From: an uncultured Candidatus Saccharibacteria bacterium
GTDB lineage: Bacteria > Patescibacteriota > Saccharimonadia > Saccharimonadales > Saccharimonadaceae
Reading direction: 5' to 3'
NCBI GenBank assembly: GCA_937873745.1
Contig: CALMYZ010000047.1
Location: 1-48,033, forward strand
DNA: 48,033 bases
Below the pieces are notes generated by a model, which had not been told where the DNA came from, did no database searches, and saw only the letters and a list, made by a program, of their open reading frames with translations. Below, piece after piece: positions 5,144 to 44,942 of this stretch. Numbering within the stretch: position 1 is the first letter of the stretch; each line of letters opens with the position of its first letter. The translations under genes were made by a program, and so were the position numbers.

Positions 5144-6007
5144 ATGAAACGTCCAACTAAGGCTATTGTTACTGATGCCGGCTTCGCTAGTCGCTATCTA
5201 CCTATAACCAAGACTATACCGAAAGCTATGTTGCCATTTGGTAACAAACCTATCATGCAATTGGTCGTCGAAGAATGTGTCGAGGCGGGTATTCGCGAGG
5301 TTATCATCGTAGCAACCCCGGAAGGTAAGCCGATTTACGAAGATTATTTCTGCAATCCGGTTAGTCATATACACCAGCAGCTCAAATCTCAAGGCAAGGA
5401 AGATCGCTACAGCCTAGTGCGAGAAGTTCTGGACCTACCAAAAATCATCGTGATAGAACAAGACCAGAGTTTGCCGTACGGCAATGGTTCGCCTATTGTT
5501 AGTGCGCGTGACTATATCGCCGACGACGAGGCGTTTTTGGTGCTATACAGTGACGATGTTGTTTTCGGCAAGAGTGACGCCAAGAGCTTGCTCGAGGCTT
5601 ACGACAGAAACCCGGACGCCAAAGCTATAGTTGCCGCCCAGGAGGTCGATACTTCTGTGGTAGATAAATACGGTATATTTCAGTTAAAAGACGATAATAA
5701 ACTCGATTATATAGTCGAAAAACCAGCTTTAGGTGAGGAGCCATCGCGACTAGCTTCTTATGGTCGCTATCTTTTGACAGCTGAGGTTTTTGAGTATCTA
5801 AACCCAGATAATACTGGCTTAGATAACGAACTTTGGACAGTGGATGCCATCACCAAGCTCGCCAAGTCTGGCGACGTCTATGTAGAGGCTACCGAAGGTC
5901 GTTGGGTGACTACGGGCGATCCAAAGAATTATTTCTTGGCGCATCTGCAGTATATACTCGACAACGAGGACTATGCTGACGATGTGCGACGAGCTATTCA
6001 GGGCTAG
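5144..6007 (+). CDS. galU: UTP-glucose-1-phosphate uridylyltransferase-like sugar nucleotidyltransferase
   Basis: N-terminal KAIVTDAGFASRYLPITKTIPKAMLPFGNKPIMQLVVEE aligns with the GalU GxGTRxLPxTKxxPKEMLP block (variant AGFASR). AGGAG SD upstream. Confidence 0.8.
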   Translation: MKRPTKAIVTDAGFASRYLPITKTIPKAMLPFGNKPIMQLVVEECVEAGIREVIIVATPEGKPIYEDYFCNPVSHIHQQLKSQGKEDRYSLVREVLDLPKIIVIEQDQSLPYGNGSPIVSARDYIADDEAFLVLYSDDVVFGKSDAKSLLEAYDRNPDAKAIVAAQEVDTSVVDKYGIFQLKDDNKLDYIVEKPALGEEPSRLASYGRYLLTAEVFEYLNPDNTGLDNELWTVDAITKLAKSGDVYVEATEGRWVTTGDPKNYFLAHLQYILDNEDYADDVRRAIQG

Positions 6008-6011
6008 TAGG

Positions 6012-6040
6012 TTTACCTATAGGCTTGATAAGCGTATAAT
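6012..6040 (+). promoter_or_regulatory. Candidate promoter TTTACC-N17-TATAAT for the small membrane protein operon
   Basis: TTTACC 6012-6017, 17-nt spacer, TATAAT 6035-6040. It is followed by an AAAGG SD and the ATG at 6075. Confidence 0.45.
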
Positions 6041-6074
6041 TATGGTGTAACACATAAACATGAAAGGTTAAAAA

Positions 6075-6320
6075 ATGGACTGGGCACAAGTATTAGTTAT
6101 TATTTTGTCACTGTTTTTGGCTATATTTTTAGTACTATCTATTGTACTGACGATGATGCTGATACGAATCACGAAGCAGATTCGGACGATTACAGACAGC
6201 GTAGAACGAACTACCAGTAGTGTAGAGAAGACGGTGGTAGGTATATCAAATGTCGCTTCGGCTACGTATCTGACAAAGATACTGAAGAATTACATTAAGA
6301 ATTATAAATCTGATAAATAA
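6075..6320 (+). CDS. Small membrane protein, DUF948/YtxG-like (N-terminal TM helix plus short coiled region)
   Basis: N-terminal hydrophobic helix followed by a Thr/Ser/Val-rich helical segment. It lies immediately upstream of a YtxH-like gene, as in Firmicutes ytxG-ytxH. Confidence 0.55.
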   Translation: MDWAQVLVIILSLFLAIFLVLSIVLTMMLIRITKQIRTITDSVERTTSSVEKTVVGISNVASATYLTKILKNYIKNYKSDK

Positions 6321-6331
6321 GGAGAGCTATT

Positions 6332-6709
6332 ATGGCGGGAAAAGGTAAATTTGCACTCGGAGCACTTATAGGTGGCGCAATCGGCGCAGTTGTTGGCATA
6401 CTGGCGGCACCAAAGAGCGGCAAGGAGACACGAGAAGATATCAAGTCCAAGGCTGACGATATCAAGAAAGAGGCTTTAGTGAGGGCCGACGAGATCGGTC
6501 AAGAAGTTAGCAAGCAGGCTAAGCGCGCTCAGGACAAGGCTACTGAGCTAGCAGATGAAGCTAAAGCATCTGTAGCGGATATCAAAGACAAGACTGGGCG
6601 AGTAGCTGGTGAGTCCGCAGAAAACTTCGACACCTATAGGTCGAAGAGTGAAAACGCCGTCAAGGGTGCTATAGACGGTGCTAAAAAAGGTTTCAACAAA
6701 AAAGTCTAA
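6332..6709 (+). CDS. YtxH domain-containing protein
   Basis: GALIGGAIGAVVGILAAPKSGKETREDIK is the characteristic YtxH N-terminal signature. The rest is charged and helical. Confidence 0.75.
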   Translation: MAGKGKFALGALIGGAIGAVVGILAAPKSGKETREDIKSKADDIKKEALVRADEIGQEVSKQAKRAQDKATELADEAKASVADIKDKTGRVAGESAENFDTYRSKSENAVKGAIDGAKKGFNKKV

Positions 6710-16127: not shown

Positions 16128-16146
16128 ATCTAGCTACCAAATATTA

Positions 16147-16176
16147 AACCACCCTGACTCTGGGGTGGTTTTTGTT
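16147..16176 (+). terminator. Rho-independent terminator after rplS
   Basis: AACCACCC (16147-16154) pairs with GGGTGGTT (16163-16170). An 8-nt loop, followed by TTTGTTT. Confidence 0.7.
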
Positions 16177-16189
16177 TATAATAGACAAT

Positions 16190-17173
16190 ATGATACTTGG
16201 AGTCGATGAAGTCGGACGCGGACCTTGGGCGGGCCCCTTGGTGGTGGGTGCTGTCGTGCTTGGCGATATTCAGGTAGACGGACTTACCGATAGTAAGAAA
16301 TTGTCGGCCAAGCGTCGCAAGGAGCTGAGTCTGGAGATACACGACAAGGCAGAGGCTGTAGGCTTGGGCTGGGTAGAGGCGAGCGAACTAGACGAGATAG
16401 GCATGAGCCAGAGTTTGGTAGAGGCGACCAAGCGAGCGGTTGCGCAGATAAAAGTACCGTATCACGAGATAATTATCGATGGAACTATCAATTTCTTGGC
16501 TGATACCGGCAAGGGTCAGTATGTCACCACACTCAAGAAAGCAGACCTCCTGATAGCTAGCGTCTCGGCCGCCTCGATAGTCGCCAAGGTGGCGCGCGAT
16601 GAGTATATGACAGAGCAGTCTGAGGCATATCCAGAATATGGCTTTGAATCACATTCTGGCTACGGCACTGCGAAGCACAGGGCGGCGATAGATGAGCACG
16701 GTATTACACCCCTCCATCGTCTAAGCTTCGCACCACTCGCCAAATACCGCCAAACTACCCCCGACGCCTTCACGCTAGCATCTCACAAGACTACAGGGTT
16801 CCACCCTGCAAAAAAGAAAAGTCAAATGCCTACGAGTAAGAGTATCGGAGATAGAGCGGAATCGGTGGCGGCTGCGTATTTGGAGTCGATCGGTCATACT
16901 GTCGTGGAGCGAAACTGGAAAACGAAGTACTGTGAAATCGATATTGTCAGCCAAAAGGGCGAAGTGATTTATTTTACAGAGGTAAAATATCGTAAGAATA
17001 ATAAGGCAGGCGGTGGTATGGCGGCGATAACCGCCAAGAAGCTGCGTCAGATGAAGTTTGCGGCTGAGCTATTTGCGCTTAATCGTAAGCTTGAGGACGT
17101 TGACCTGCGACTGTCGGTTATTGAGGTATCTGGAGAAAGCTTCGAGGTCACTGAGTATCTAGAGCGAGTGTGA
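16190..17173 (+). CDS. rnhB: Fusion protein: RNase HII (N-terminal) plus YraN/UPF0102 endonuclease-like domain (C-terminal)
   Basis: N-terminal GVDEVGRGPWAGPLVVGAVV, IIIDG and SIVAKVARD are RNase HII motifs. C-terminal GDRAESVAAAYLESIGHTVVERNWKTKYCEIDIV...YFTEVKYR is the YraN signature. The two are joined by a linker of about 30 aa. Confidence 0.85.
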   Translation: MILGVDEVGRGPWAGPLVVGAVVLGDIQVDGLTDSKKLSAKRRKELSLEIHDKAEAVGLGWVEASELDEIGMSQSLVEATKRAVAQIKVPYHEIIIDGTINFLADTGKGQYVTTLKKADLLIASVSAASIVAKVARDEYMTEQSEAYPEYGFESHSGYGTAKHRAAIDEHGITPLHRLSFAPLAKYRQTTPDAFTLASHKTTGFHPAKKKSQMPTSKSIGDRAESVAAAYLESIGHTVVERNWKTKYCEIDIVSQKGEVIYFTEVKYRKNNKAGGGMAAITAKKLRQMKFAAELFALNRKLEDVDLRLSVIEVSGESFEVTEYLERV

Positions 17174-21386: not shown

Positions 21387-21410
21387 TCCGGCCGGCAGGT
21401 CGGATTTTTT
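21387..21410 (+). terminator. Rho-independent terminator after the HNH nuclease gene
   Basis: TCCGGCC (21387-21393), loop GGCA, GGTCGGA (21398-21404, one G-U pair), followed by TTTTTT. Confidence 0.6.
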
Positions 21411-21427: not shown

Positions 21428-22546
21428 ATGGACGAATTAAACCTAAAACAACTAACCTTAGCAGTAAACACTATCGCTGAGGAGAAAAACCTACCAGAAG
21501 ATGTAGTGATGAGTGTCATCGAGCAGGCTATTGCAGCTGCTTGGCGCCGCGACAATGGCGAGCGTGACCAAGAAGTGCGTGCCGAGCTAAATACCAACAG
21601 CGGCACAGCCAAGGTGTTTGTAGCTCGTGAAGTTGTCGAGCTGGTTGGTAGCGACGCTCTCGAGATCAGCCTAGAAGATGCCAAGAAGCAAAAAGCTGAC
21701 GCTGTACTTGGCGACATCATCGAAGAAGAGCACGAAGTAGCTAGCTTTGGTCGCGTGGCTGCTCAGACCGCCAAGCAAGTTGTCTTGCAGCGCCTACGTG
21801 AAGCGGAGCGTGAAGTTGTACTAGGCGAGTTTGAAGACAAAATCGGCACTATCGTCAACGGTACGGTTCAGCGTGTCGAGCCGCGCGTGGTGCGGGTTGA
21901 ACTCGGCAAGGCTGTCGGTATTATCCCGCAGAGTGAGCAGATTCAGGGTGAATTCTACAGCGTCGGCTCACGCATCAAGGTGTTTATCAAGGATATTGAG
22001 CGCGATAATCGTGGACCACAGTTGATTCTTAGTCGTGGCAACGAAGCGTTTGTCGAGCATTTGTTTGCCCAAGAGGTGCCAGAGATGGAGACTGGCGCAG
22101 TCGAGATCAAGGCGATTGCTCGCGAAGCGGGCCGTCGTACTAAGTTGGCAGTTGTAAGTACGGTCCCTGGTGTTGACCCGGTCGGTACATTTGTCGGTGG
22201 TCACGGCACGCGCGTCCAGGCAGTTATGAATGAAATTGGTGATCAAGAGAAGATCGACATCATCACTTTTAGCGACAATAACGAAGAGTTTATCCGCAAT
22301 GCTCTGTCTCCAGCTGAGGTGGCAAAGATAGAGATCAACGAAGCTGACAAGAAAGCTAAGGTTTTCGTGGCCGAAGATCAGCAGTCTATCGCAATTGGCC
22401 GGGCTGGTCAAAATGTCCGACTGGCTAGTCGCCTAACTGGCTACGAGCTAGATATCGAGACCGCTGTGCCAGCCAAGGAGGAGCCAAAGCCTCGCAAGAA
22501 CATCGAAGACAGCCTACTTAGCGCTGTCGAAGAAACTGCCGAATAG
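21428..22546 (+). CDS. nusA: Transcription termination/antitermination factor NusA
   Basis: NusA N-terminal domain, S1 domain (GTIVNGTVQRVE...), and two KH domains (PGVDPVGTFVGGHGTRVQ, AIGRAGQNVRLASRLTG). Confidence 0.93.
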   Translation: MDELNLKQLTLAVNTIAEEKNLPEDVVMSVIEQAIAAAWRRDNGERDQEVRAELNTNSGTAKVFVAREVVELVGSDALEISLEDAKKQKADAVLGDIIEEEHEVASFGRVAAQTAKQVVLQRLREAEREVVLGEFEDKIGTIVNGTVQRVEPRVVRVELGKAVGIIPQSEQIQGEFYSVGSRIKVFIKDIERDNRGPQLILSRGNEAFVEHLFAQEVPEMETGAVEIKAIAREAGRRTKLAVVSTVPGVDPVGTFVGGHGTRVQAVMNEIGDQEKIDIITFSDNNEEFIRNALSPAEVAKIEINEADKKAKVFVAEDQQSIAIGRAGQNVRLASRLTGYELDIETAVPAKEEPKPRKNIEDSLLSAVEETAE

Positions 22547-22566
22547 GACAGTTTTCTAACCTAAAA

Positions 22567-22593
22567 CTAGCACTCGCTTGACTAGAGTGCTAG
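22567..22593. promoter_or_regulatory. CIRCE-type inverted repeat (HrcA operator) CTAGCACTC-N9-GAGTGCTAG, doubling as the nusA terminator
   Basis: Matches the CIRCE consensus TTAGCACTC-N9-GAGTGCTAA at 8/9 positions per arm with the canonical 9-nt spacer. The stem extends to 13 bp through flanking A/T runs and is followed by a T5 run. Confidence 0.8.
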
Positions 22594-22606
22594 TTTTTCT
22601 TATACT
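22578..22606 (+). promoter_or_regulatory. clpC promoter TTGACT-N17-TATACT (-35 inside the CIRCE spacer)
   Basis: TTGACT 22578-22583, 17-nt spacer, TATACT 22601-22606. A 60-nt leader with an AAAGGAAGG SD precedes the ATG at 22667. Confidence 0.55.
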
Positions 22607-22666
22607 GGATATAGTAAGTAGTTTTTGTGCTTGCGCCTAACTCTGAAAGGAAGGATAATAGGACTA

Positions 22667-25135
22667 ATGGCTGATGATTTTCACGAATTTGTTACTCACT
22701 TGACTGACAATGCGCGGATCAGTCTGCAGCATGCTGACGCGATTGCGCGTGGTTACGGCAGTCCTTATATCGGCACCGAGCATATTTTGTTAGGTGTTTT
22801 GGCGCAAGGTGCCTCGGTCGGAGCTAAGTTGCTGGCCGATGCCGGTGTCACACTAGACAGGGCTGAGGTGGCACTTAATTTGACACCACGAAATCTAGCA
22901 GTCGGGACTATCGGTAAGGGCTTGTCTGAGACAGCCAAGCTAACTCTAAAGATGAGCTGGGATATCGCTCAAGAGTTTCATCAAGAATTTCTCGGTACCG
23001 AGCACATCTTGTACAGCATTTTAAGCCAGAAGAGTGCTCGGGCTAGTGTATTGCTACGCGACATGAGCGTCGATACTACAGAGTTGAAGTCTGAGTTAGA
23101 AGAGTTCTTCGATCGCCAGACTGGTGACTATCATCAAAACGCCACTACTTCTACGCAGCGTAAGTCTACCAAGGGTGGTGCGCTTGATGTTTTTGGTGTC
23201 GACTTAACTGCCAAAGCTCGTAGCTCACAGCTAGACCCGGTGATTGGCCGTGATCAACAGACCGAGCGAATGATCACTATCTTGAGTCGTCGCACGAAGA
23301 ACAACCCTGTCTTGATCGGTGAGCCTGGTGTCGGTAAGACGGCGATAGTCGAAGGTCTGGCGCAGCGTATCGCTAGTGAAGATGTGCCGGATCATTTGCT
23401 GGACAAACGGGTTGTCCAGCTGGACCTGGCTGCTATGATAGCCGGTACAAAGTATCGGGGTGAGTTCGAGGAGCGCCTCAAAAAAGTGATTAGCGAGCTG
23501 GCCCGTCAAAAAAACATCCTACTATTTATCGATGAATTACACCTCCTAGTAGGGGCCGGTGCCGCCGAAGGTGCGCTCGATGCTGCCAATATGCTAAAGC
23601 CAGCTCTAGCTAGGGGTGAACTGCGTCTAATCGGTGCGACAACATTTGATGAATATCGTAAACACATCGAAAAAGATTCAGCTCTAGAGCGTCGTTTCCA
23701 GACTATCGTAGTGCCAGAGCCATCTATAAAAGACACGGTCGCTATCCTAAAAGGCCTGAAGCCTCATTATGAAAAACATCACAGCGTATCTATAAGCGAT
23801 GAGTTGATAGACGACGCTGTCTATATGGCGGATCGCTACGTCTCGGAGCGTTTTATGCCAGACAAAGCCATCGACGTGATCGATGAAGCCGCGGCCTTGG
23901 TGCGAGTCAAAAGAGCACGCAAGCCAAGTAAGTTACGAGACTACACTAGACAGCTCAATAGTCTAAACGAGAAAATGGAAGAATCTGTCAATGCCAAAGA
24001 CTATGAGCGGGCCGCACTGTATAAGACACGAATTAGTCAGATTACCGAGCAGCTAGAGCAGACTAGTCAGGAGTTCGAAAAGAAGACACCCGTGAAACTT
24101 ACAGATGATGATGTAGCACATGCTATCGCGACTATGACGGGTGTGCCTGTCAAGCGAGTTCAGCGTTCGGAGGCCAAGCTGTTGCGTTCACTCGAGGCGC
24201 ATCTTGCCAAGCATGTCATCGGTCAGACCGAAGCTATCGAAAAAGTCGCCAAGGCAATTCGGCGCAGTCGTAGCGGCGTGTCATCGACCAAACGACCGAT
24301 TGGATCTTTTGTATTTATGGGACCGACTGGTGTTGGTAAGACAGAGCTTGCCAAGGTGCTGGCTCGTGAGGTATTTGGTAGTGATGATGCGCTGATCAAG
24401 ATCGACATGAGCGAGTTTGGTGAGCGCCATAACACCTCGCGCCTACTCGGTGCGCCAGCTGGCTATGTCGGCTATGACGACGGTGGTCAGCTGACAGACA
24501 AGATTCGCCGTCAGCCATATAGCGTGGTGCTGTTTGATGAAATAGAAAAGGCTCATCCAGAGGTTTTTCAGCTACTCCTGCAGCTACTTGAAGACGGCGC
24601 GCTGACTGATGCCAAAGGTAGAGTGGTTAATTTCTCCAATACTATCATCATATTGACCAGCAATCTCGGTGCTGACCGTATGATGAAAGAATCTAGCCTC
24701 GGTTTCGCGGCCAAGACCAAGCAAGACGAGAAGTTATTGGACGAGGCGCACCTAGAAAACGCCGCTGCCGCTAAGGAGGCCCTTGGCAAGATGATGCGAC
24801 CAGAGCTGATCAATCGGTTTGATGGCATCGTTACTTTTAGGGCCCTGACGCGAGCCCAAGTCGGTAAGATATTTGATAATTTCATAGCCGAACTACAGGA
24901 TAGATTGGTGCGTAAAGGTATACACCTGACGGTCAAGCCGGCCGCAAAGCGACTAATCGTCGCAGCTGGGCACGACGAAAAGTTTGGTGCCAGGCCACTC
25001 AGGCGGGCCTTGCAAGATATGCTAGAGCATCCGCTTGCTGAAGGGATATTATCTGGTGAATTCGAAAAAGGTACGGTCGTAAGCGTCGGTACGAAAAAGG
25101 GTGAAATTGAGCTATCTATCGTCACAGAAGCTTAG
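22667..25135 (+). CDS. clpC: ATP-dependent Clp protease ATP-binding subunit ClpC
   Basis: Two Clp_N repeats, two AAA+ modules ([16 protein letters not shown]), a UVR-like linker and an LGF ClpP-docking loop. The ATG at 22667 with its SD is preferred over the track start at 22625. Confidence 0.93.
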
Positions 25136-26111
25136 TCACGGCGGCTCATGGCTGTCGACTATAGTATCGGTCTTGATACTTCTTTCGGTCGGCTGGCTCG
25201 GGTTTAATTACCAGTATGTAGTAGATCAAGTAGCTGTTTGGTCTTATCATTCGGATCCTCAGCTTGATCGGATAATCAATGACACTAAGCTTACTACTAG
25301 GGGCGAGTTTTACCTAAAGGCTTCAAATGCTCAAATAGCCAACGCTGATACATTTAGTAAGCAGTGTAAGAAGACAGAAAATCACAGCGCTATACTCGGC
25401 TGCTATGTAAATAACCGGATATACGTCTACGATATCACCGACGAACGACTAGACGGTATCAAGGAGGTGACGACTGTTCATGAGATGCTCCATGCTGCCT
25501 GGGATAGGCTGGGTAGCCAGCGTCAACAAGAGCTAACCAAGCTACTAGAGGCTGAATATCAGAAGCTCAAGACGGCTGAACTAGAAGAGCGTATGGCCTA
25601 TTATTATCGCAATGAACCGACCGAGATAGCCAATGAACTTCATTCTATATTGCCGACCGAGATATCGGAACTGAGCCCCGAGCTAGAGAGCTACTACTCG
25701 GGCTATACGGACGACAGAGCTGGTATCGTCTCGCTATATGATAAATACAGTGCGGTTTTTGACAGCATTCAGGACGAAGCCGACACGCTCTCGGCTCAAG
25801 CTTCGGCGCTAGCCAGCTCTATAGATACTAATACCAAGTCTTACAACGCCGACATGGCGAGCTTGAACAGCGAAATACAAAATTTTAACTCACGGGCTAG
25901 TAGCGGATATTTCAGCACGCCATCTCATTTCAATACTGCTCGCGCTGGCCTGGTGTCGCGCACAGATAGTCTAGAGTCTAGGCGCAAAGCACTTCAGGCT
26001 GACATAGACAAATACAACAGCATGGTTCAACGTCTAAACGAGCTCAGTACTAAGTCTAATGAGCTGCAGAGCAGTATCGACAGTACGCTGGCAGCTCCAC
26101 CGAGCCTTTAG
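25101..26111 (+). CDS. Membrane-anchored hypothetical protein with HExxH motif (putative metallopeptidase) and Ser-rich coiled-coil tail
   Basis: TM helix at about aa 17-37, two Cys residues, HEMLH at aa 127-131 (nt 25479-25493), and a C-terminal heptad-like Ser/Ala/Asn-rich region. The start (GTG 25101 or TTG 25107) lies inside the clpC 3' end. Confidence 0.6.
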   Translation: MKLSYLSSQKLSHGGSWLSTIVSVLILLSVGWLGFNYQYVVDQVAVWSYHSDPQLDRIINDTKLTTRGEFYLKASNAQIANADTFSKQCKKTENHSAILGCYVNNRIYVYDITDERLDGIKEVTTVHEMLHAAWDRLGSQRQQELTKLLEAEYQKLKTAELEERMAYYYRNEPTEIANELHSILPTEISELSPELESYYSGYTDDRAGIVSLYDKYSAVFDSIQDEADTLSAQASALASSIDTNTKSYNADMASLNSEIQNFNSRASSGYFSTPSHFNTARAGLVSRTDSLESRRKALQADIDKYNSMVQRLNELSTKSNELQSSIDSTLAAPPSL

Positions 26112-26129
26112 GTGGTATAATTATAAAAT

Positions 26130-27479
26130 ATGGCGAAGTCTAAGAGTCAATATGTCTGCCAAAGCTGCGGCGCTAATTATCCGAAATGGAGCGGTCGTTG
26201 CGAAAATTGCGGTGAGTGGAATTCGCTAGTCGAGCAGATTGCTAGCGGTGGCAGTTCAGCTGTCGCCAAGGCGCAAAAGAGCGGCAAGACATTGTCGGTA
26301 CGCACCATGAAGTCGATCGAAGATAGCGATGAATCTCATCGCTACAAGACTGGATTTACAGACTTAGATGACGTCTTAGGCGGCGGCATCCTGGCTGGGG
26401 GCGTGTCTCTACTAGCTGGGCAGCCAGGTATAGGCAAGAGTACCTTACTCTTGCAGCTCGCGGCTTATGTGTCGCAGTCTAGGTCGGTTCTTTATGTTAG
26501 CGGCGAAGAGAGTGCCTCTCAGGTGAAGCTACGTGCTACTAGACTCAGTGCCGATGCCTCCGACGAGCTACATTTTGCCAGCAGCACAAGTGCGGACGAC
26601 GTAGCGGCTACTATTCGAGGTAGCCAATATTCACTAGTGATAGTTGACTCCATACAGACACTGAGTCTAGACGATATCACGAGTGCGCCTGGTACCGTTA
26701 GTCAGATTACCAATAGTAGCAATGTAATTATCCGGGCCGCCAAAGAGTCTGGTGCGGCTGTGATGTTGGTCGGTCACGTCACCAAGGAGGGCTCGATTGC
26801 TGGCCCGAAAGTTTTGGAGCATCTAGTTGACGTTGTTTTGCAGTTTGAGGGCGATCGTTATGGCGGCTTCAAGATAGTGCGTGCTGTCAAAAACCGCTAC
26901 GGTAGTACGAGCGAGGCGGCTATTTTTGAGATGGTTCAAGAGGGTCTAAAGCTAGTAGAAAACCCTTCGGCTGCGTTATTGGCTGAACGTCAAGATGCCG
27001 ACGGCTCGGTAGTTTTAGCTACCCTGGAAGGCACCCGTCCGCTCCTGGTAGAGATCCAGGCACTTGTCAATCCGACAAATTTCGGGTATCCTAAACGTAC
27101 TGCCTCTGGTTTTGACCTGAATCGCCTAAACCTACTAGTAGCCGTTCTCGAGAAGAGGACCAAACTGAATTTATCAGACAAAGATATCTATATAAATGTA
27201 GTAGGTGGCCTCAAGTTACAGGATCCGGCAGCCGATCTAGCTGTAGCGATGGCGATTGCTAGCGCCGCAGCTGGCCGCAAGCTATCAGAGAATCTAGTCG
27301 TATTTGGTGAGGTAGGTTTGGGCGGCGAGATACGCAGTGTACGTGGTGCTGATCAGCGAATTGCCGAGGCTAAGAAGCTTGGTTTTGACGGGGCACTAGG
27401 TCCAAAGAGCGGCAAAAAGAATTTATTTATACGAAGCGTAGCTGATATTCGTCAGGCGCTCGTCGATTACGTCAAGTAA
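26130..27479 (+). CDS. radA: DNA repair protein RadA/Sms
   Basis: N-terminal C4 zinc finger (CQSCGANYPKWSGRCENCGEW), Walker A GQPGIGKST, KNRYG motif and a Lon-like C-terminal domain. Confidence 0.95.
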   Translation: MAKSKSQYVCQSCGANYPKWSGRCENCGEWNSLVEQIASGGSSAVAKAQKSGKTLSVRTMKSIEDSDESHRYKTGFTDLDDVLGGGILAGGVSLLAGQPGIGKSTLLLQLAAYVSQSRSVLYVSGEESASQVKLRATRLSADASDELHFASSTSADDVAATIRGSQYSLVIVDSIQTLSLDDITSAPGTVSQITNSSNVIIRAAKESGAAVMLVGHVTKEGSIAGPKVLEHLVDVVLQFEGDRYGGFKIVRAVKNRYGSTSEAAIFEMVQEGLKLVENPSAALLAERQDADGSVVLATLEGTRPLLVEIQALVNPTNFGYPKRTASGFDLNRLNLLVAVLEKRTKLNLSDKDIYINVVGGLKLQDPAADLAVAMAIASAAAGRKLSENLVVFGEVGLGGEIRSVRGADQRIAEAKKLGFDGALGPKSGKKNLFIRSVADIRQALVDYVK

Positions 27480-27494
27480 TCAGGAAGGAAATAT

Positions 27495-28388
27495 ATGGAA
27501 ATATTTATAGCAGTAGCACTAGCGGTGCTACTTATCGAGGTGACTTATCTGGTGTACAGAGGCTATTCGCCTATCGCAACTAGTAGTCGTAAGGCCGGCA
27601 GAGGCCCGGTTTTTGTAGACACCTCAGTCTTGATGGACGGTCGGATATTGGCCCTAGCTGAATCTGGTTTTATCGGCCGAGACTTGTATGTACCACGTTC
27701 GGTTGTCGGTGAACTGCAGTTTTTGGCTGACAATGGCGACGCCGATAAGCGTATGCGAGCTCGAGCCGGGCTGGATTTGATCAGTGAGCTACAGGCCTTG
27801 CCAGACGCTAGTGTAACCCTGTTTCAAGACGGTTCGATAGCCAGGGATGGTGTTGATGACAGGTTGCTCGAATTAGCCAAGAAGCACAGTGGAGCAATCT
27901 GTACGATAGACTTTAACCTCAACAAGGTTGCTACCGTAGAGTCTATAGAGGTCTTGAATATCAACGAGCTTGCCAAGCAATTACGAGCTACTTATTTACC
28001 GGGTGAGCGTATATCACTGGCGCTAACTCAGAAGGGTCAAGATCCGCACCAAGCGATCGGACATCTAGAGGATAGTACCATGGTGGTCGTAGAGCAAGCG
28101 TCCCAGAAGATTGGCTCTACTGTGGAGGTTGAATTGATACGAAGCCTTCAAACTTCTGCTGGTAAAATGCTATTTGCGCGAGTTGTCGATGGTGATAAAC
28201 CTAAATCTAAGTCGTCTACCAAAAAGCTTGTCACCAAGGGTCGCGCTCCGATGGTAAGCAAGCAATCGACACAGCCAAGCAAGACGCAGCAATCTAAGCC
28301 GAAGGGTGCTCCTACTAAATCTAGCAAGCCTCGACGCAAGAATGATACAGAGGCTTCGATTATCGAGCTGGCTAATCGTCAGCCGTAG
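27495..28388 (+). CDS. PIN/TRAM domain protein (YacL-like) with Lys/Ser/Gln-rich tail
   Basis: N-terminal TM helix, PIN domain (VFVDTSVLMDGRI...), and TRAM-like domain (GSTVEVELIRSLQTSAGKMLFARV). Its position after radA matches Firmicutes clpC-radA-...-yacL. Confidence 0.8.
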   Translation: MEIFIAVALAVLLIEVTYLVYRGYSPIATSSRKAGRGPVFVDTSVLMDGRILALAESGFIGRDLYVPRSVVGELQFLADNGDADKRMRARAGLDLISELQALPDASVTLFQDGSIARDGVDDRLLELAKKHSGAICTIDFNLNKVATVESIEVLNINELAKQLRATYLPGERISLALTQKGQDPHQAIGHLEDSTMVVVEQASQKIGSTVEVELIRSLQTSAGKMLFARVVDGDKPKSKSSTKKLVTKGRAPMVSKQSTQPSKTQQSKPKGAPTKSSKPRRKNDTEASIIELANRQP

Positions 28389-42992: not shown

Positions 42993-44279
42993 ATGAAAAC
43001 ATCTGTAAAAAATCTATCCGACACACGTGTCGAGCTAACTATCAAGCTCGGCAAAGAAGAGCTCGCGGCAGCCGAACAGGTTGCCCTAACCAAGCTCGCC
43101 AAAAACATCAAAGTACCAGGCTTTCGCGCCGGCAAAGTCCCAGCTAGCGTAGCCGCTAAGCACGTTGAGTCTGGCAGTCTAGCGCAGCAAAGCCTAGAGG
43201 ACGCCGTTTCCAGGGCTGTGGCTGAGGCATTTATCGCCGAAGATATCCAGGCACTAGAGCGTCCAGCTGTCGATATCAAGAAATTTGTTCCGTCTAGCGA
43301 GGTAGAGTTTACAGCCGAAGCCGACATCTTGCCAAAGATCAAGCTCGGTGACTATAAGAAGCTCGGCGTTAAGCAAGAATCCGCAAAGGTAAGCACCGCT
43401 GAAGTAACCGATATCATCGATCGTATGTTAGAAGGCAGCGCCGAGAAGGTAGCTGTCGAGCGTGCGGCCAAAGACGGCGACGAAGTGGTTATCGACTTTG
43501 TTGGCAAAAAAGACGACGTCGCTTTTGACGGCGGGGCAGCCCAAGATCACAGCCTCAAGCTAGGTAGTAATAGCTTCATCCCTGGCTTCGAAGAGGGAAT
43601 TGTCGGCAAAAAAGCCGGCGATAAGTTTGATCTCAAGCTGAAGTTTCCAAAAGATTATCACGCCGACGAACTAGCCGGTGCTGACGTGGTGTTCGAGACT
43701 ACTCTCAAGGCCGTCAAAGAGTCAAAGCAGCCAAAGCTTGACGATGACTTCGCCAAGAAAGTCGGTCAAGGTGTCGAAACTGTCGCCGAACTAAAAGCCG
43801 ATATCAAGAAAGAGCTTCAGGCTCAAAAAGACCGCGAGTCAGCTGAAAAGCACAAAGACAATCTAGTAGCAGCCCTAGTAGACACCAGCAAGGTACCGGC
43901 TCCACAAGTACTGGTCGACGATCAGGCTCGAAGCATCGAGCAAGATATGCGCCAAAATCTTATGTATCAGGGTATCACGCTAGAGCAATATATCAAGACT
44001 CAGAAATTCAAAGACGAAGCCGATTGGCAGAAAAAAGAAGTTGCGCCGGCTGCCGAGAAGCGTGTCAAGGCAGGCTTGGTCTTGGCTGAGCTTAGCAAAG
44101 AGCTCAAGGCAGAGGCTAGCGCCGATGAACTAGCTGAGCATATAAACCTATATCGTCAGCAATACGCCAACAATCCAGACGCGCTCAAACAATTCGAGCA
44201 GCCAGAAGTACAGCGCGACATCGCCAATCGCTTACTGACCGAAAAGACAGTCGATAAGCTCGTCGAGCTAAATAAATAG
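42993..44279 (+). CDS. tig: Trigger factor
   Basis: N-terminal ribosome-binding block PGFRAGKVP, FKBP-type PPIase domain (FIPGFEEGIVGKKAGD), and a C-terminal helical domain. Followed by clpP, as in most bacteria. Confidence 0.93.
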   Translation: MKTSVKNLSDTRVELTIKLGKEELAAAEQVALTKLAKNIKVPGFRAGKVPASVAAKHVESGSLAQQSLEDAVSRAVAEAFIAEDIQALERPAVDIKKFVPSSEVEFTAEADILPKIKLGDYKKLGVKQESAKVSTAEVTDIIDRMLEGSAEKVAVERAAKDGDEVVIDFVGKKDDVAFDGGAAQDHSLKLGSNSFIPGFEEGIVGKKAGDKFDLKLKFPKDYHADELAGADVVFETTLKAVKESKQPKLDDDFAKKVGQGVETVAELKADIKKELQAQKDRESAEKHKDNLVAALVDTSKVPAPQVLVDDQARSIEQDMRQNLMYQGITLEQYIKTQKFKDEADWQKKEVAPAAEKRVKAGLVLAELSKELKAEASADELAEHINLYRQQYANNPDALKQFEQPEVQRDIANRLLTEKTVDKLVELNK

Positions 44280-44298: not shown

Positions 44299-44325
44299 CT
44301 AGCACTCTATTTACACGAGTGCTAG
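44299..44325. promoter_or_regulatory. Second CIRCE-type inverted repeat CTAGCACTC-N9-GAGTGCTAG, doubling as the tig terminator
   Basis: The arms are identical to the copy at 22567-22593. The 9-nt spacer is TATTTACAC, followed by a T5 run. Confidence 0.8.
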
Positions 44326-44339
44326 TTTTTGTGTATAAT
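44310..44339 (+). promoter_or_regulatory. clpP promoter TTTACA-N18-TATAAT (-35 inside the CIRCE spacer)
   Basis: TTTACA 44310-44315 and TATAAT 44334-44339. The ATG at 44346 lies only 6 nt downstream of the -10 and has no SD. Confidence 0.55.
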
Positions 44340-44345
44340 GAAAGC

Positions 44346-44942
44346 ATGACAAAGCCATCGAACTATCTAGTACCGACAGTTATCGAGAAGACTCACGACG
44401 GCGAGCGCGCCTTCGATATCTATTCTCGCCTGCTAAACGAACGCATCATCTTCTTGGGCGAAGACGTCAATGAACACACGGCCAATATAGTAGTAGCTCA
44501 GTTGCTTCATCTGGCATACGAAGATTCGAGTAAAGACATCAAGCTCTATATCAATAGCCCTGGCGGTAGCGTCTACGACGGCCTGGCTATCTACGACACT
44601 ATCCAGTATATCAAGCCAGATGTGCAGACTATCGGTATCGGCTTGCAAGCTAGCATGGGAGCCTTCTTGCTCAGTAGTGGCACCAAGGGTAAGCGCTTCG
44701 CTCTGCCAAATAGCCGGATTATGATCCATCAGCCATCGAGCGGTACTCACGGTAAGATTACTGATCAAGAGATTACGCTCAAAGAGGGGATTTACCTCAA
44801 ACAGCAACTCAACAAAATCCTGGCTAGCAACACCGGTCAAAAGATTTCTAAGATTGAAAAAGACGCCGATCGTGACTTCTGGATGAGTGCCGATGAGGCC
44901 AAAGATTACGGACTGATCGACGCAGTTATCACCAAAGCCTAA
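44346..44942 (+). CDS. clpP: ATP-dependent Clp protease proteolytic subunit ClpP
   Basis: [38 protein letters not shown] is a typical N-terminus. Catalytic Ser (GLQASMGAF), His (MIHQP) and Asp are present. The track start at 44319 falls inside the CIRCE stem and was rejected. Confidence 0.95.

Follow-up and report, generated by a model that had tools for sequence, protein, structure and literature searches.

The palindrome between nusA and clpC in this Saccharibacteria genome is a real, conserved CIRCE element placed on the predicted clpC promoter, and it has a twin on the predicted promoter of clpP. The best overall explanation, and one that we consider likely to be right, is that both palindromes are functional HrcA operators, each forming part of the core promoter that drives a Clp gene; as a prediction from sequence comparison, repression of clpC and clpP by HrcA is well supported. 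The arrangement is not a new kind of system; it is a conserved and compact layout typical of the lineage. The features on the clpC side of the window (the whole stretch of DNA that was analyzed, 48,033 nucleotides from an uncultured Candidatus Saccharibacteria bacterium) are as follows.

21428-22546, + strand: nusA (Pfam NusA_N, S1, and KH/KH_5), co-directional with and upstream of CIRCE no. 1
22563-22597, no strand assigned: extended perfect inverted repeat, consisting of the CIRCE and A4/T4 flanks (repeat search)
22563-22566: A4 run, directly 5' of the left arm
22567-22593, no strand assigned: CIRCE no. 1, CTAGCACTC-GCTTGACTA-GAGTGCTAG, putative HrcA operator of clpC
22567-22575, 22576-22584, and 22585-22593: left arm CTAGCACTC, spacer GCTTGACTA, and right arm GAGTGCTAG, as read from the sequence
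22578-22606, + strand: predicted sigma-70 promoter of clpC, with -35 TTGACT (22578-22583) in the CIRCE spacer and -10 TATACT (22601-22606)
22594-22598, + strand: T5 run, directly 3' of the right arm and within the promoter spacer; possible U-tract of a nusA terminator
22667-25135, + strand: clpC, 822 aa (Pfam, gene call, and translation)
25083-28388, + strand: 342-aa open reading frame (ORF), radA (26130-27479), and a gene for a PIN-TRAM protein (27495-28388) (gene calls and Pfam)

The CIRCE/HrcA consensus is TTAGCACTC-N9-GAGTGCTAA, and in systems of the Bacillus subtilis type it is found upstream of groESL and hrcA-grpE-dnaK-dnaJ (PMC3842655). Both copies in the window resemble the B. subtilis element in that they match 8 of 9 consensus positions per arm, are perfectly self-complementary, and have a 9-nt spacer; for 22567-22593 this had been stated in a preliminary description of the DNA, and a read of the sequence together with a scan confirmed it. 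They differ in having C/G as the outer arm bases, a variant that is common in Actinobacteria too. The A4/T5 flanks had been said to extend the stem to 13 bp, and the repeat search indeed returned 13-nt arms (22563-22575 and 22585-22597) that are 100% complementary, with a 9-nt loop. When the motif search proposed in the preliminary description was run on the 48-kb window (pattern [CT]TAGCACTC-N9-GAGTGCTA[AG], allowing up to 3 mismatches), 22567-22593 and 44299-44325 were the only matches, each with 0 mismatches. Shuffled versions of the window contained a mean of 0.08 copies, and two copies were reached in 0 of 100 shuffles. The arms of the two copies are identical, and both copies lie directly upstream of a Clp gene (clpC and clpP) and not behind unrelated genes. 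The second copy, between tig and clpP, was absent from the preliminary description and is decisive for interpreting the clpC-side palindrome. The genes for the two ClpCP subunits, clpC and clpP, thus each have a CIRCE. The clpP side contains the following features.

42993-44279, + strand: tig (trigger factor; Pfam Trigger_N, FKBP_C, and Trigger_C), co-directional with and upstream of CIRCE no. 2
44299-44325, no strand assigned: CIRCE no. 2, CTAGCACTC-TATTTACAC-GAGTGCTAG, putative HrcA operator of clpP
44310-44339, + strand: predicted clpP promoter, with -35 TTTACA (44310-44315) in the CIRCE spacer, an 18-nt gap, and TGTG-TATAAT, in which the -10 is at 44334-44339
44346-44942, + strand: clpP, 198 aa (Pfam CLP_protease, 6e-79; NCBIfam ClpP subfamily, above the cut-off)

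The exact ClpP protein of the window was found on 17 public contigs. CIRCE no. 2 was identical across four strain-level contigs (L230 to L233). In one of these, L230, a gene of 390 aa has been inserted after tig, yet the CIRCE still adjoins clpP and is accordingly attributed to the promoter that follows it, not to the gene that precedes it. The inserted ORF (L230, 8785-9957) has no Pfam match and ends in a TAG codon located within the left arm of the CIRCE. Gaps of approximately 0.7 to 1.2 kb between tig and CIRCE-clpP were likewise seen in L022, L067, and L098.

A promoter scan confirmed the previously described TTGACT -35 box in the spacer of CIRCE no. 1, with TATACT 17 nt downstream (TTGACT-17-TATACT, 10 of 12 matches). 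The predicted transcription start of clpC is at approximately 22613, and the operator would thus span approximately -46 to -20, a position from which HrcA would therefore block recognition of the -35. The arrangement in B. subtilis is another one, as there CIRCE lies downstream of the promoter, whereas here the -35 is within the operator spacer. The best sigma-70-like promoter at each CIRCE site was recorded (at least 9 of 12 matches), and the -35 was inside the CIRCE spacer at 23 of 29 Patescibacteria sites versus 1 of 76 sites in other phyla, a contrast that is somewhat weakened by the different base composition of the 76-site comparison set. At clpP the ATG is 6 nt past the predicted -10, and the clpP mRNA is probably leaderless. 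A distance of 5 to 10 nt from the predicted -10 to the ATG was seen at 13 of 24 CIRCE promoters of Patescibacteria, window clpP included; such spacing implies leaderless mRNAs and fixes the promoter position independently. This suggests that leaderless mRNAs may be common among the heat-shock genes of the lineage. The close -10/ATG spacing was seen in the window (44334-44348), in L007, L018, L044, L056, L078, L083, L084, L109, and L112, and at the hrcA loci L206 to L263, and no Shine-Dalgarno sequence was visible in the start-codon contexts read of such CIRCE promoters. Occlusion of the -35 by a cruciform or DNA hairpin, which the preliminary description had raised beside HrcA binding, was set aside as speculation, as repressor binding alone accounts for the layout.

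The Clp ATPase ORF extends from 22625 to 25135, and the actual start is the ATG at 22667. By Pfam and translation, the protein combines two Clp_N repeats and two AAA+ modules with a short middle domain of the UVR type and an SSLGFAA loop; loops of this LGF type dock on ClpP. Because of these four features the protein is classed as ClpC-like rather than ClpB-like, and by its sequence it would be a partner of ClpP. Downstream, the gaps between clpC, the 342-aa ORF, radA, and the PIN-TRAM gene are -53, 18, and 15 nt. The 342-aa ORF gave zero matches in Pfam and NCBIfam searches. Judging from this packing, the 342-aa ORF, radA, and the PIN-TRAM gene are probably co-transcribed with clpC in an operon, and they may be co-regulated from the clpC CIRCE promoter. 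The order clpC-radA-PIN/TRAM is reminiscent of the downstream portion of the clpC operon in B. subtilis.

To examine conservation at clpC, 80 ClpC loci were gathered from metagenomes and their upstream regions were scanned for CIRCE. Among loci for which upstream DNA was available, the four nearest in ClpC sequence (L126, L127, L128, and L129, with 78, 61, 60, and 60% ClpC identity, respectively) all have a CIRCE 99 to 128 nt before the ATG. A CIRCE with 2 or fewer mismatches was found in none of the 74 distant ClpC loci (43 to 48% identity); in one of these a match with 3 mismatches lies 330 nt upstream, and several have CtsR boxes instead. In an alignment of seven clpC upstream regions, nearly all of the invariant columns were CIRCE arm positions (mean column identity of 53%); the spacer sequence and flanks drift, and the spacer length is fixed at 9 nt. 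The synteny nusA-clpC(-radA) is kept, with nusA-clpC present in L021, L075, L126, L128, L129, and L130. The 60-nt nusA-clpC gap of L130 (3936-4001; nusA 76% and ClpC 54% identical) contains neither a CIRCE nor a promoter-like sequence, and the wiring of clpC is therefore not universal.

The exact 18-base pattern was also scanned across public genomes, using one genome per species, and at least 120 loci were listed. The first downstream gene at each locus was classified by tblastn with GroES/EL, DnaK/J, GrpE, and HrcA probes, and a Pfam check of ten representative proteins confirmed HrcA, DnaJ, ClpP, ClpC, and Cpn10. Among the matches listed, 97 loci were from other phyla, mostly Actinomycetota, and were followed by groES (n = 69), groEL (n = 3), hrcA (n = 4), dnaK (n = 1), a Clp ATPase gene (n = 2; L041 and L104), or a gene that was left unclassified (n = 18); outside the Patescibacteria, groES/groEL, hrcA, or dnaK was thus downstream in 77 of the 79 classified loci among the matches listed. 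The other 23 listed loci were Saccharibacteria/Patescibacteria-like, including three labeled only "bacterium" that were assigned to this group by protein similarity and layout, and the genes following them were hrcA (n = 5), dnaJ (n = 6), groES (n = 3), dnaK (n = 1), clpC (n = 2; L021 and L075), and clpP (n = 6; L022, L049, L062, L067, L084, and L098). As the motif tracks chaperone and hrcA genes across phyla, the pattern is therefore identified as the HrcA operator. Related Saccharibacteria genomes share with B. subtilis the motif before hrcA, dnaK, dnaJ, and groES, and the window differs from B. subtilis in that its targets are clpC and clpP. Clp genes were the targets at 8 of the 23 Saccharibacteria-like loci versus 2 of the 79 classified loci elsewhere (matches listed), and the HrcA regulon of the lineage is therefore taken to include Clp genes. 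The two Clp loci elsewhere are in an Eggerthella sp. (L104, 760-786), where the CIRCE precedes a gene for an 858-aa ClpC-like protein located 200 nt downstream, and in a Lambdaproteobacteria MAG (L041, 2767-2793), where it precedes a gene for a 786-aa Clp ATPase.

These distributions bear on whether the palindrome could be a generic terminator hairpin or a repeated extragenic palindrome that resembles CIRCE fortuitously and has no operator function, as its placement directly after a gene, with a U-tract, might suggest. We regard this as highly improbable, given that only two copies exist in 48 kb (68 kb with the flanks of strain-level contigs), both before Clp genes, that the motif follows heat-shock genes rather than gene ends across genomes, and that it remains with clpP in L230 despite the insertion after tig. 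Furthermore, the arm sequence is invariant across 60% protein divergence, and the -35 in the spacer faces the downstream gene.

In L078, L109, and L033, the gene that follows the CIRCE (1947-2675, 5634-6347, and 1616-2320, respectively) encodes a protein with a match to the HrcA domain of Pfam. A database search with Saccharibacteria HrcA returned at least 8,000 related short-HrcA clusters; in the best 120 of these (P0001 to P0120), Saccharimonadales HrcA is 234 to 247 aa long versus approximately 338 aa for canonical HrcA, the lineage protein thus being approximately 100 aa shorter than that of B. subtilis. The PF01628 match in the short HrcA covers only profile positions from approximately 88 to 110 up to 215. 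From these matches, the short HrcA would seem to be without approximately 100 middle residues of canonical HrcA, and its properties may differ from those of the canonical protein. The N-terminal winged-helix DNA-binding domain is well conserved and aligns with Thermotoga maritima HrcA (1STZ). A further 50 hrcA loci of Saccharimonadales had sufficient upstream sequence, and in all 50 a CIRCE (0 to 2 mismatches) ends 19 to 20 nt before the hrcA ATG; most of them have TTGCAA or TTGAAT in the spacer and a TAAAAT located 6 nt upstream of the ATG. A CIRCE before hrcA and tandem CIRCEs before dnaK make up the classic autoregulatory signature of HrcA.

In the genome under study, the window was extended by approximately 10 kb on each side via strain-level contigs, and in the approximately 68 kb covered in total, no third CIRCE and no hrcA, groESL, or dnaK was found. 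Six HrcA clusters, picked by source and contig count (P0008, P0027, P0096, P0044, P0093, and P0089), were traced, and none came from samples carrying the window genes. One could accordingly envisage an operator that is recognized by some different regulator, or by HrcA and a second factor; besides the absence of hrcA from the 68 kb examined, the short HrcA of the lineage (about 236 versus 338 aa) and its score in L109 of 170 bits against the NCBIfam hrcA equivalog, below the cut-off of 197, would fit such a regulator. We nevertheless consider this very unlikely, as the motif precedes hrcA itself at all 50 of the further hrcA loci, the winged helix is well conserved relative to 1STZ, and the arms are those of the canonical HrcA site of other phyla.

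Other known controllers of Clp genes were considered as well. In Firmicutes, the class III regulon of CtsR comprises the ctsR-mcsA-mcsB-clpC operon and clpP and is recognized by a heptad direct repeat. The window shares the targets clpC and clpP with this regulon and differs in having no CtsR repeat and in having nusA upstream. The earlier statement that no ctsR, mcsA, or mcsB gene and no CtsR heptad precedes clpC therefore holds: these genes were not found upstream of clpC in the window, where nusA is located instead, as in six relatives, and no CtsR heptad repeat (A/GGTCAAA-NAN-A/GGTCAAA) was found near clpC or clpP. The only 2-mismatch CtsR match in the window is inside dnaE and is at chance level. 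A CtsR box was also absent upstream of clpC in the four close relatives L126 to L129, the scan of L127 covering only approximately 300 nt. The clpP gene of Streptococcus salivarius is reported to be dually regulated (Chastanet and Msadek, 2003). The regulators there are CtsR and HrcA, and a CtsR box is present in addition to the CIRCE; the window is alike in having clpP with a CIRCE and different in that the CtsR box is missing and clpC is also a target. ClgR of Actinobacteria is an activator that acts through TNCGCT-N3-GGCGNAA before clpP1 and clpC (PMC9004370). The ClgR regulon likewise places clpC and clpP under one factor, although ClgR activates and has another motif, and in the window this motif had 16 matches versus 16.0 expected, with none upstream of clpC or clpP. 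Control of clpC and clpP by CtsR or ClgR was rejected, since their sites are absent or at chance level. An Rfam scan of the window returned only two tRNA-Leu genes and nothing at either CIRCE locus. The earlier proposal that the Clp unfoldase belongs to the HrcA regulon in place of CtsR is thus strongly supported by the comparison, which would extend it to clpP, and we infer that control of ClpCP, which is exerted by CtsR in Firmicutes and by ClgR in Actinobacteria, is exerted in this lineage by HrcA.

Taking both palindromes as HrcA operators, a course of regulation can be proposed. With the -35 hexamer in the 9-nt spacer, the -10 lying 16 to 18 nt beyond, and the operator over approximately -46 to -20, an HrcA dimer occupying both arms would deny sigma-70 RNA polymerase access to the -35. 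In the B. subtilis model, GroEL keeps HrcA active. By analogy with that model, unfolded proteins would titrate GroEL and HrcA would be released, so that clpC (probably with orf342-radA-PIN/TRAM) and clpP would be derepressed under stress, jointly with hrcA-grpE-dnaK, dnaJ, and groESL. This small-genome lineage thus probably switches its protein-degrading machine together with its chaperones. To our knowledge, the literature says almost nothing about how transcription is regulated in Saccharibacteria or Patescibacteria, and in a literature search no paper was found on HrcA or CIRCE in either group. A weak hint of co-regulation comes from a TM7x transcriptome preprint, whose sole pertinent result is that "clpB" and clpP increased in parallel during stable symbiosis.

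A parallel exists in the Mollicutes. In Mycoplasma pneumoniae, the genes under HrcA control are dnaK, dnaJ, groESL, clpB, lon, pepA, and pip, with tig and lon separated by a CIRCE (PMC7737663). The two cases are alike in that a reduced genome has, or here is predicted to have, one repressor for the chaperones and the main ATP-dependent protease, and tig-CIRCE-lon there is paralleled by tig-CIRCE-clpP here. They differ in that Lon and ClpB are the targets there and ClpC and ClpP here, in another phylum, and in that each Clp gene of the window appears to own an operator-embedded promoter. The locus would be a second reduced-genome example, after the Mollicutes, of a main protease under the chaperone repressor.

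The preliminary description had further proposed that the same DNA acts as the terminator of nusA. It is quite conceivable, if slightly short of probable, that the palindrome doubles as a Rho-independent terminator or insulator of nusA (and of tig), an addition to operator function rather than a strict rival to it, in which case a single 35-bp cassette would close one transcription unit and open the following one, which is regulated. The RNA folds of the clpC-side and clpP-side palindromes are -18.5 kcal/mol (z = -4.4) and -21 kcal/mol (z about -4), each followed by U5, and the hairpins begin 20 and 19 nt past the nusA and tig stop codons, respectively. A co-directional upstream frame ends 11 to 27 nt before the palindrome at 15 of 29 Patescibacteria sites, a count made with a stop-to-stop frame heuristic in which some frames are short and possibly spurious. 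Hairpin and T-run terminators also occur elsewhere in the genome, e.g., at 16146-16171 and 21387-21404. On the other hand, the A-run is missing at the clpP copy, where only a T5 follows the right arm; the 9-nt loop exceeds the 3- to 8-nt range of the terminator scan, which listed neither site; and conservation of the arms extends to their sequence and is not limited to their pairing. At least four T's within the 5 nt after the arm were found at 17 of 29 Patescibacteria sites versus 2 of 76 others, and the T-run was present at 7 of 10 sites without an adjacent co-directional upstream gene versus 14 of 18 with one (Fisher p = 0.67). Selection of the T-run for termination was rejected on this lack of association, and the T-run therefore looks like a part of the promoter cassette. 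Given the hairpin, the U5, and the 20-nt distance from the nusA stop codon, termination of nusA by the palindrome is plausible, maybe as a useful by-product in a compact genome. The hairpin at 16146-16171 is perfect and GC rich (AAACCACCC...GGGTGGTTT) with A and T runs, scores as a terminator on both strands, and lies just upstream of an RNase HII fusion gene (16172-17173); from it, the genome can be said to use conventional intrinsic terminators.

Both operators and the possible terminator role enter a bolder proposal, which we put forward tentatively and hold to be rather doubtful as a whole: that a miniaturized HrcA of approximately 236 aa is the single master switch of chaperones and ClpCP in Saccharibacteria/Patescibacteria, acting via a portable, lineage-specific promoter-inside-operator cassette that is often leaderless and also terminates or insulates the upstream gene. 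If true, three regulatory functions would be packed into one module of unusual compactness, which would suit streamlined genomes. The locus and its relatives offer a concrete and testable regulon (hrcA-grpE-dnaK, dnaJ, groESL, clpC, and clpP) and a defined layout of promoter and operator in a phylum for which genetic tractability is a recent achievement (PMC10633639). The compact cassette could become a stress-inducible promoter for genetic tools in Saccharibacteria/Patescibacteria.

Several Saccharibacteria-like contigs carry tandem CIRCEs, one perfect and one with 1 to 2 mismatches, upstream of dnaK or groES, spaced 29 to 48 nt apart from start to start (L206, 5132-5203; L216, 4590-4662; L117, 6656-6711; and L083, 3551-3625). 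On many Saccharimonadales contigs, a very hydrophobic ORF of 44 aa (MDII.TI..G...) lies directly between hrcA and grpE (L206, 3711-3845; L244, 3708-3842; and equivalents). On some Saccharimonadales contigs, a DJ-1/PfpI gene or tatA/tatC is located between grpE and dnaK.
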